Shown: piece after piece, positions 30,993 to 31,330 of the stretch | How the letters are laid out: the number at the start of each line of letters is the position of its first letter | Position numbering within the stretch: position 1 is the first letter of the stretch | DNA from: Escherichia coli | Lineage (GTDB): Bacteria > Pseudomonadota > Gammaproteobacteria > Enterobacterales > Enterobacteriaceae | Strand: one strand, 5' to 3' | Length of the DNA stretch: 64,000 nucleotides | Assembly: GCF_003018255.1 (NCBI RefSeq) | Contig: NZ_CP027440.1 | Position numbers and translations under genes: made by a program | The notes under the pieces: model-generated | What the model was told of the DNA's origin: nothing | Seen by the model: only the letters and a program-made list of their open reading frames with translations | Database searches by the model: none

Positions 30993-31169
30993 ACCCTCTT
31001 CTATGAATAATCCCTGGCCCAAAAAGCCGGGGATTTTTTATATCTGCGTTCCGCTAAAAGGTGCAAATGATCAAGCTGTTGCAGCATTTTGCGTGACTGC
31101 TCGGGGAAGGCAAAACTGCCTCTGGGAAAGCGTTGCGCGGGGTCCGGCGCTCATCAACAATCGGGGAGT

Positions 31170-31330
31170 CAGCAAGGGGCTGAAACGGGAAAGCCCCTCC
31201 CGAGGAAGGGGCCTTGTATAAGGAAAGGGTTATGATGAAGCTCGTCATCATACTGATTGTGTTGTTACTCGTAAGTTTCGCAGCTTATTAACAGCCAATC
31301 AGAGGGGGGAGAAATCCTCCCTCACCCTTG
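31170..31330 (-). ncRNA. Sib-family antisense sRNA (type I antitoxin) overlapping the ibs ORF; ends approximate
   Basis: Conserved GC-rich structured sequence (AGCAAGGGGCTGAAACGGGAAAGCCCCTCCCGAGGAAGGGGCC) antisense to the Ibs toxin ORF, in the yqiK-hldE intergenic position typical of sibD/sibE. Confidence 0.45.
31232..31291 (+). CDS. Ibs-family hydrophobic toxin peptide (type I toxin-antitoxin)
   Basis: 19-codon ORF MMKLVIILIVLLLVSFAAY; not in the ORF track because of its length. Confidence 0.75.
   Translation: MMKLVIILIVLLLVSFAAY

Follow-up and report, generated by a model that had tools for sequence, protein, structure and literature searches.

A single, apparently recombinant Ibs/Sib toxin-antitoxin unit between yqiK and hldE in Escherichia coli

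The ibs gene and its antisense RNA

In the window, the whole 64-kb stretch of Escherichia coli DNA that was analysed, yqiK (29331-30992, + strand) and hldE (31411-32844, - strand) are convergent, and the locus described here occupies the 418 nt between them; its features are listed in Table 1. The flanking ORFs, the PGAP annotations of matching genomes and synteny with K-12 all identify it as the yqiK-hldE Sib locus. A preliminary description of this DNA had placed one copy of the Ibs toxin/Sib antisense RNA family at this position, over 31130-31330, based on a 19-codon hydrophobic ORF and a GC-rich structured flank. The ORF is present (MMKLVIILIVLLLVSFAAY) and its flanking ORFs are indeed those of yqiK and hldE, while the structured flank resolves into two hairpins: one at 31190-31215, which corresponds to the predicted Sib terminator and is also part of the ibs leader, and one (GAGGGGGGAGAAATCCTCCCTC) at about 31302-31323, near the Sib 5' end, which is the ibs 3' end. 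The proposed span was right for the locus but not for its end, with the predicted Sib RNA reaching 31331 and its promoter 31366. Strain JNE23-011 matches a 1.2-kb stretch around the locus at 100% identity, both JNE23-011 and JNE112863 do so over 2.5 kb, and in identical genomes NCBI PGAP gives the gene the label 'type I toxin-antitoxin system Ibs family toxin'.

The ORF has the size and character of an Ibs gene (18-19 residues, highly hydrophobic) and fits the toxin profile over its full length, scoring 40 bits with Pfam Ibs_toxin (PF13956; cut-off 27, E=3.6e-10, profile positions 1-19 of 19). Its product is the same as K-12 IbsD at 19/19 residues and is also identical in O157 and in the first unit of Escherichia albertii, and the reading frame in the window carries neither frameshift nor truncation. 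An NCBIfam scan, for which the peptide was padded to 25 aa because of a 20-aa minimum length, gave no match to an Ibs model and a single irrelevant weak match. The Shine-Dalgarno region is invariant in 17 units from 6 genera (complement CCCTTTCC in the alignment). To place the transcript, we used the K-12 ibsD mRNA, whose start was mapped by primer extension (Han et al. 2010, PMC2943612). The T7-ibsD primer of that study starts GTCAGCAGGGGGCTG and its ibsD+163 primer ends ...CACCCTT, the 3' end of the mRNA being an estimate only (PMC2943612); the counterparts of these motifs in the window lie at 31168 (+1 motif) and 31308-31329 (3' motif). The putative ibs promoter lies 7 nt upstream of the +1 deduced from the mapping by Han et al. 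2010. It is weak, with only 8/12 consensus positions fitting, which is why our promoter scan did not list it. The toxin peptide is encoded by the sole ORF of the predicted ibs mRNA. ORF callers with a length cut-off miss modules of this kind, and flagging the locus was right.

On the opposite strand, the Rfam model SIB_RNA (RF00113) matches antisense to the ORF at 149.8 bits (gathering score 56, E=2.9e-31, model positions 1-147 of 147), and the match to the Ibs/Sib family is far beyond chance. Because the Rfam model includes the promoter, the ends of the RNA were taken from the annotated ends of K-12 sibD, mapped onto the window by alignment. The resulting gene, of the length of about 140 nt typical of these opposite-strand small RNAs, is predicted to share a 142-nt overlap with the ibs transcript and therefore to cover the initiation region and the whole ORF. 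Its first 112 nt are exactly those of K-12 SibD and its 3' tail is SibE-like; set against the five K-12 paralogues it is clearly of the SibD type (140/145, compared with 132/144 for SibE), with SibA, SibB and SibC far more distant. Alignment with K-12 had been named as a check on the original identification, and with the peptide equal to IbsD and Sib nt 1-112 equal to SibD, the ORF stands as an ibs homologue.

The two predicted transcripts have separate promoters, that of Sib found by the promoter scan and that of ibs by homology to K-12 ibsD. From the -35 hexamer through the +1 (the A at 31331), the Sib promoter is the same as that of K-12 sibD letter for letter, and both hexamers are kept in 17 units from Escherichia, Citrobacter, Kluyvera, Phytobacter, Salmonella and one Enterobacteriaceae genome. 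The K-12 sibD transcript, which has this same promoter, is well documented (PMC12956327). The two target recognition domains were carried over from SibC, where TRD1 spans +46 to +68 and TRD2 +99 to +115 (PMC2943612). Folding of the 17 units from 6 genera gave 45 predicted pairs, only 2 of which are changed on both sides; with almost every pair the same in all units, covariation lends the Sib fold next to no support and speaks neither for nor against it. Considering both strands together, we regard the locus as very probably one intact unit of Ibs/Sib, a type I toxin-antitoxin family of the E. coli chromosome.

Table 1. Features of the yqiK-hldE spacer in the window
Feature	Position	Strand	Basis and details
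yqiK intrinsic terminator	31009..31045	+	Hairpin 31009-31035 plus T-run; terminator-like site scan
Putative ibs promoter	31133..31161	+	-35 TTGCGC (31133-31138), 17-nt spacer, -10 AACAAT (31156-31161)
Predicted ibs mRNA, ~162 nt	31168..31329	+	Homology to K-12 ibsD mRNA (+1 to +163)
Predicted Sib antisense RNA, 144 nt	31188..31331	-	K-12 sibD ends by alignment; SibA-E alignment; RF00113
Predicted Sib 3' terminator hairpin (Sib nt 117-142)	31190..31215	-	MFE fold and consensus fold
TRD2 equivalent (Sib nt 100-119)	31213..31232	-	Over ibs translation-initiation region; SibC TRD2 via alignment
Mosaic core patch, ~110 nt	31216..31323	.	14/16 differences from the 24AR0180 allele cluster here
SIB_RNA match, full-length	31217..31366	-	Rfam RF00113
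ibs Shine-Dalgarno region AAGGAAAGGG	31220..31229	+	Sequence; invariance across units
ibs toxin gene	31232..31291	+	19 codons plus stop, ATGATG...TAA; peptide MMKLVIILIVLLLVSFAAY; ORF list and K-12 comparison
TRD1 equivalent (Sib nt 47-69)	31263..31285	-	SibC TRD1 carried over by SibA-E alignment
Predicted Sib promoter	31338..31366	-	-35 TTGACG (31366-31361), 17-nt spacer, -10 TAAAGT (31343-31338); promoter scan

The unit is alone. The 64-kb window contains one SIB_RNA match, in agreement with the single copy first noted; a permissive Rfam scan of 30900-31500 found no second unit, only a weak + strand echo of the same site, and self-BLAST of the spacer found no internal repeat. Neither search revealed a degenerate second unit. 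In the K-12 MG1655 annotation, the interval from yqiK to hldE holds the tandem pair sibD/ibsD and sibE/ibsE, as the preliminary description had stated. The K-12 spacer measures 794 nt, with its two units about 91% identical over 358 nt at an offset of 377 nt; given the 418 nt of the window's spacer, exactly one unit of about 376 nt is missing, with no remnant. Each repeat extends from the terminator hairpin of yqiK through the Sib -35 hexamer, so that the 376-nt unit duplicated in K-12 opens with this hairpin, which recurs at the start of unit E. K-12 thus has a second, orphan yqiK terminator between sibD and sibE (1904-1945 of the K-12 locus extract), and the window has one. At the other end of the spacer, a terminator-like hairpin (AACCGCTTTCCGGTT plus T-run; 31398-31422, + strand) straddles the hldE stop codon; it could stop ibs read-through into hldE antisense, or be bidirectional and serve hldE.

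Composition and origin of the single unit

When the sites that differ between units D and E of K-12 were compared with the window, the unit proved to be D-like in the ORF and Sib promoter (31256-31357) and mostly E-like in the ibs leader (31120-31219). The two recognition domains divide in the same way: the TRD1 equivalent is D-type at 5/5 diagnostic sites (31270, 31271, 31280, 31282 and 31283), and the TRD2 equivalent is E-type at 3/3 (31216, 31217 and 31219). A single unequal crossover in a K-12-like array, leaving D on the left and E on the right, does not account for this arrangement. The interior pattern is reversed, with an E-like leader followed by a D-like ORF and Sib promoter, so the collapse would need at least one extra recombination step.

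Single-copy strains such as NC101 and A0 34/86 have the flanks most similar to those of the window (98.3-98.6% identity). Against the allele of 24AR0180, the mismatches number 2 in 31010-31215, 14 in 31216-31323 and 0 in 31331-31369, so that upstream of 31216 and around the Sib promoter this allele is all but identical to the window. The divergent 108-nt core covers the Shine-Dalgarno region, the ORF and the 3' hairpin, and it differs from the hldE-proximal unit (unit 2) of strain EP91A by 1 mismatch. It looks like a gene-conversion tract that swapped the specificity core of toxin and antitoxin. As judged from these comparisons, the surviving unit is a recombinant that combines an hldE-proximal (sibE-position) backbone with a SibD-type ORF and TRD1 core. 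A strict orthologue of SibD (K-12 b4447) would be D-type in both recognition domains and in a yqiK-proximal backbone, and the window's unit is not; in view of the D/E mosaic, it is best named a 'SibD-type core in a sibE-position unit'.

Each of the closest known units shares only part of this composition. K-12 ibsD/sibD (b4664/b4447) has the same peptide, Sib nt 1-112, Sib promoter, +1 and TRD1 equivalent, as well as the same left neighbour, yqiK with its terminator. It differs from the window in Sib nt 113-144 (the TRD2-variable triplet and the terminator) and in the ibs leader and promoter, all SibE-like in the window, and its right neighbour is a second unit, whereas in the window hldE follows directly. 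K-12 ibsE/sibE (b4666/b4611) and the single 'ibsE' unit of NC101, A0 34/86 and 24AR0180 also adjoin hldE and carry the same E-type TRD2-variable triplet, but they have a different ORF and TRD1 core, IbsE being MMKLVIILVVLLLLSFPTY in K-12 and MMKFVIILVVLLLLSFPTY in the 24AR0180 group. The closest unit overall, at 97.5% identity, is the hldE-proximal unit of EP91A (NZ_CP149815.1), which likewise joins a D-type ORF to an E-type leader triplet; unlike the window, EP91A keeps a second, yqiK-proximal unit (peptide MMKLVIILIVLLLVSFQAY), and 8 substitutions lie outside the core.

To place the single-copy state among relatives, we searched one genome per species with a degenerate probe for the Shine-Dalgarno and ibs start region, which returned 30 loci, 13 of them with hldE, and 12 of these were scanned with Rfam. 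In ten genomes, none of them Escherichia, a single Sib lies beside hldE: five of Citrobacter (C. youngae, C. amalonaticus and three Citrobacter sp.), Kluyvera sichuanensis, two Phytobacter species, one Enterobacteriaceae genome and Salmonella enterica subsp. arizonae. The other two, Escherichia albertii and Escherichia sp. E1V33, carry a pair of Sib genes at a distance of 376-377 nt, and their inter-unit junction is that of K-12 save for 1-2 substitutions. The order in E. albertii is also that of K-12, with an IbsD-identical peptide first and an IbsE-like one second. Because the other genera have one copy and these two Escherichia genomes have two with the K-12 junction, we consider the single copy in the window to be probably a secondary collapse of an old Escherichia two-unit array. 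The simplest history, with the direction of collapse and the order of events reconstructed by parsimony, would have one ancestral copy that was duplicated before the species of Escherichia diverged, followed by collapses within E. coli. That collapse may have happened repeatedly is supported by the different unit types retained in single-copy alleles, which are IbsD-type in the window, end in ...FATY in EM10-18-28 and in ...FQAY in FCI1, and are IbsE-type in 24AR0180, CAVp367, THO-006 and KOr019, and by the two-copy arrays, which also vary in the unit types they hold.

An ancestral, never-duplicated state kept in the window's lineage is a competing explanation, which we judge unlikely. It agrees with the one Sib found beside hldE in every non-Escherichia relative examined and with the closeness of the window's flanks to single-copy NC101 and A0 34/86, which, along with 24AR0180, we take to belong to phylogroup B2. 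Phylogroup B2 is often placed early in the E. coli tree. However, a lineage that never duplicated sits poorly with a two-unit array that has the K-12 junction (1-2 substitutions) in E. albertii and E1V33, outside E. coli, with the D-then-E order shared by E. albertii, and with single-copy alleles of several types (D in the window, E in CAVp367 and 24AR0180, Q in FCI1). In addition, the window's unit recombines unit types that exist only through duplication.

More speculatively, frequent gene conversion may shuffle specificity cores of about 110 nt as modules, with cross-protection by hybrid Sib RNAs allowing arrays to collapse, a proposal that we hold to be doubtful on the present comparisons. 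If it were true, hybrid Sib RNAs might repress two toxin types, so that an array could collapse and the cell survive. The yqiK-hldE arrays of AHB29, EP91A and E1V33 also contain Ibs variants absent from K-12 (MMKLIIILIVLLLISFHAY, MMKFVIILIVLLLVSFQAY, MMKLVIILIVLLLVSFQAY and MMKFVIILIVLLLISFHAY), which differ chiefly at the four C-terminal residues and at position 4.

Predicted action of Sib on the ibs mRNA

In K-12, IbsC is toxic when over-produced and SibC represses it, according to the earlier work cited in PMC2943612. The Ibs/Sib antisense RNA spans the whole functional mRNA, and recognition uses two independent domains, a TRD1 loop that pairs inside the ORF and a single-stranded TRD2 that pairs where translation starts, after which base pairing extends and RNase III cleaves the duplex (PMC2943612). 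The same study showed repression of ibsD by SibD-type recognition domains and found repression to be cognate-specific, ibsA excepted (PMC2943612). Two other tandem chromosomal type I loci, ldr/rdl and zor/orz, likewise pair a small hydrophobic toxin with a repressing small RNA but belong to other sequence families than Ibs/Sib (Fozo et al. 2010).

As far as the sequence allows one to judge, all the parts that a K-12-type mechanism needs are intact in the window. The + strand would give an mRNA of about 162 nt with the 19-residue hydrophobic peptide, and the - strand, from its own sigma-70 promoter, a 144-nt Sib RNA complementary without a mismatch to 142 nt of the mRNA, a stretch that takes in the ribosome-binding site and the entire ORF. 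By analogy with SibC/ibsC and SibD/ibsD of K-12, first contacts would be made by the TRD1 loop inside the ORF and by the single-stranded TRD2 segment over the initiation region. Pairing would extend from these contacts and block translation, and the Sib-mRNA duplex would become a substrate of RNase III, so that the toxic peptide would not be made. Transcription of both strands, toxicity of the peptide when over-produced and its repression by Sib may all be expected at this locus from the K-12 precedents. Because the RNA and its target lie on opposite strands of the same DNA, their complementarity is perfect whatever the unit type; the only possible effect of the mosaic structure would be on cross-talk with other ibs copies elsewhere in the genome, outside the window.

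The unit could instead be a decaying, non-functional remnant whose toxin is no longer expressed or toxic and whose RNA has no role, which we think very improbable. In its favour, many lineages evidently tolerate the loss of one unit, and the K-12 MG1655 annotation lists IbsD only as a 'putative toxic peptide'. Decay is nevertheless hard to reconcile with an intact ORF that is the same in K-12, O157 and unit 1 of E. albertii, with a Shine-Dalgarno sequence, start codons and both promoters that are kept across genera, and with a covariance-model match that is full-length, the unit having neither frameshift nor truncation.

Frequency of the single-copy state and other observations

A 60-nt probe across the K-12 D-E junction matched 3929 of 5426 complete E. 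coli genomes (72%), and the genomes without the junction set an upper bound of 27.6% for the single-copy state. We also ranked genomes by their match to the window's spacer and sampled 60 of them at even steps; the match from yqiK to hldE was contiguous, that is, a single unit, in 13/60; FCI1 was single on inspection and one further sampled genome shows the same match pattern, giving 13-15/60. A single unit is thus present in about 22-25% of complete E. coli genomes, a frequency estimated from the junction probe and the even-step sample and not from a full count. Only 1 of the 5426 complete genomes lacked any match to the yqiK-ibs-hldE region. EC0900, H102 and a few others match solely via a paralogous Sib locus, and in genomes like these the spacer or yqiK may be absent entirely.

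It is barely credible that the single copy was created during assembly by the merging of two tandem repeats. Poor short-read assemblies can collapse repeats such as the K-12 units, which are about 91% identical over 358 nt, but units of just 376 nt with 9% divergence are easily resolved. Two independent complete genomes match the 2.5-kb region at 100% identity, 69 complete genomes match the 446-nt spacer at 99% identity or more, and about a quarter of complete genomes hold one unit.

The window's locus is a known, PGAP-annotated element in a common natural allelic state. Lineage-specific duplication, 'a few losses' and varying numbers of Ibs genes per genome have been described (Fozo et al. 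2010, PMC2887945), and the family, the locus and its tandem-or-single variability are all established already. The present analysis adds mildly to this picture, with a population figure (about a quarter of genomes single), an evolutionary polarity and a surviving unit that appears to be recombinant. The last of these is evidence that recombination carries the specificity core from unit to unit, which could be of interest for how cross-talk is avoided among paralogous antisense RNAs.

One 'plasmid' match was inspected as a candidate for a plasmid-borne ibs and was rejected. The replicon in question (NZ_CP114132.1, 'plasmid' pNJS001-2, 439 kb) carries the chromosomal mdtB-mdtA-ibs-ibs-ibsA-yegL region (3726-4441 of the extract) and looks like a chromosome-derived replicon or a mis-assigned contig. 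It has three ibs genes where K-12 has two (ibsA and ibsB), and therefore the other tandem Sib locus is also variable in copy number.

Three further RNA elements were noted in the window. An FMN riboswitch (RF00050, 120.9 bits) at 27602-27750 on the - strand is presumably the ribB leader, and the same neighbourhood beside yqiK/hldE is found at the Citrobacter, Kluyvera, Phytobacter and Salmonella loci. A naRNA4/REP-type element (RF02564, 83.1 bits) at 39286-39356 on the - strand lacks, compared with the model, 6 nt of the stretch that separates its two hairpins. Finally, a tRNA with a CAT anticodon at 51696-51771 (+ strand) was called tRNA-Met by ARAGORN; going by position in K-12 it may be ileX, in which a modified CAU anticodon reads Ile.
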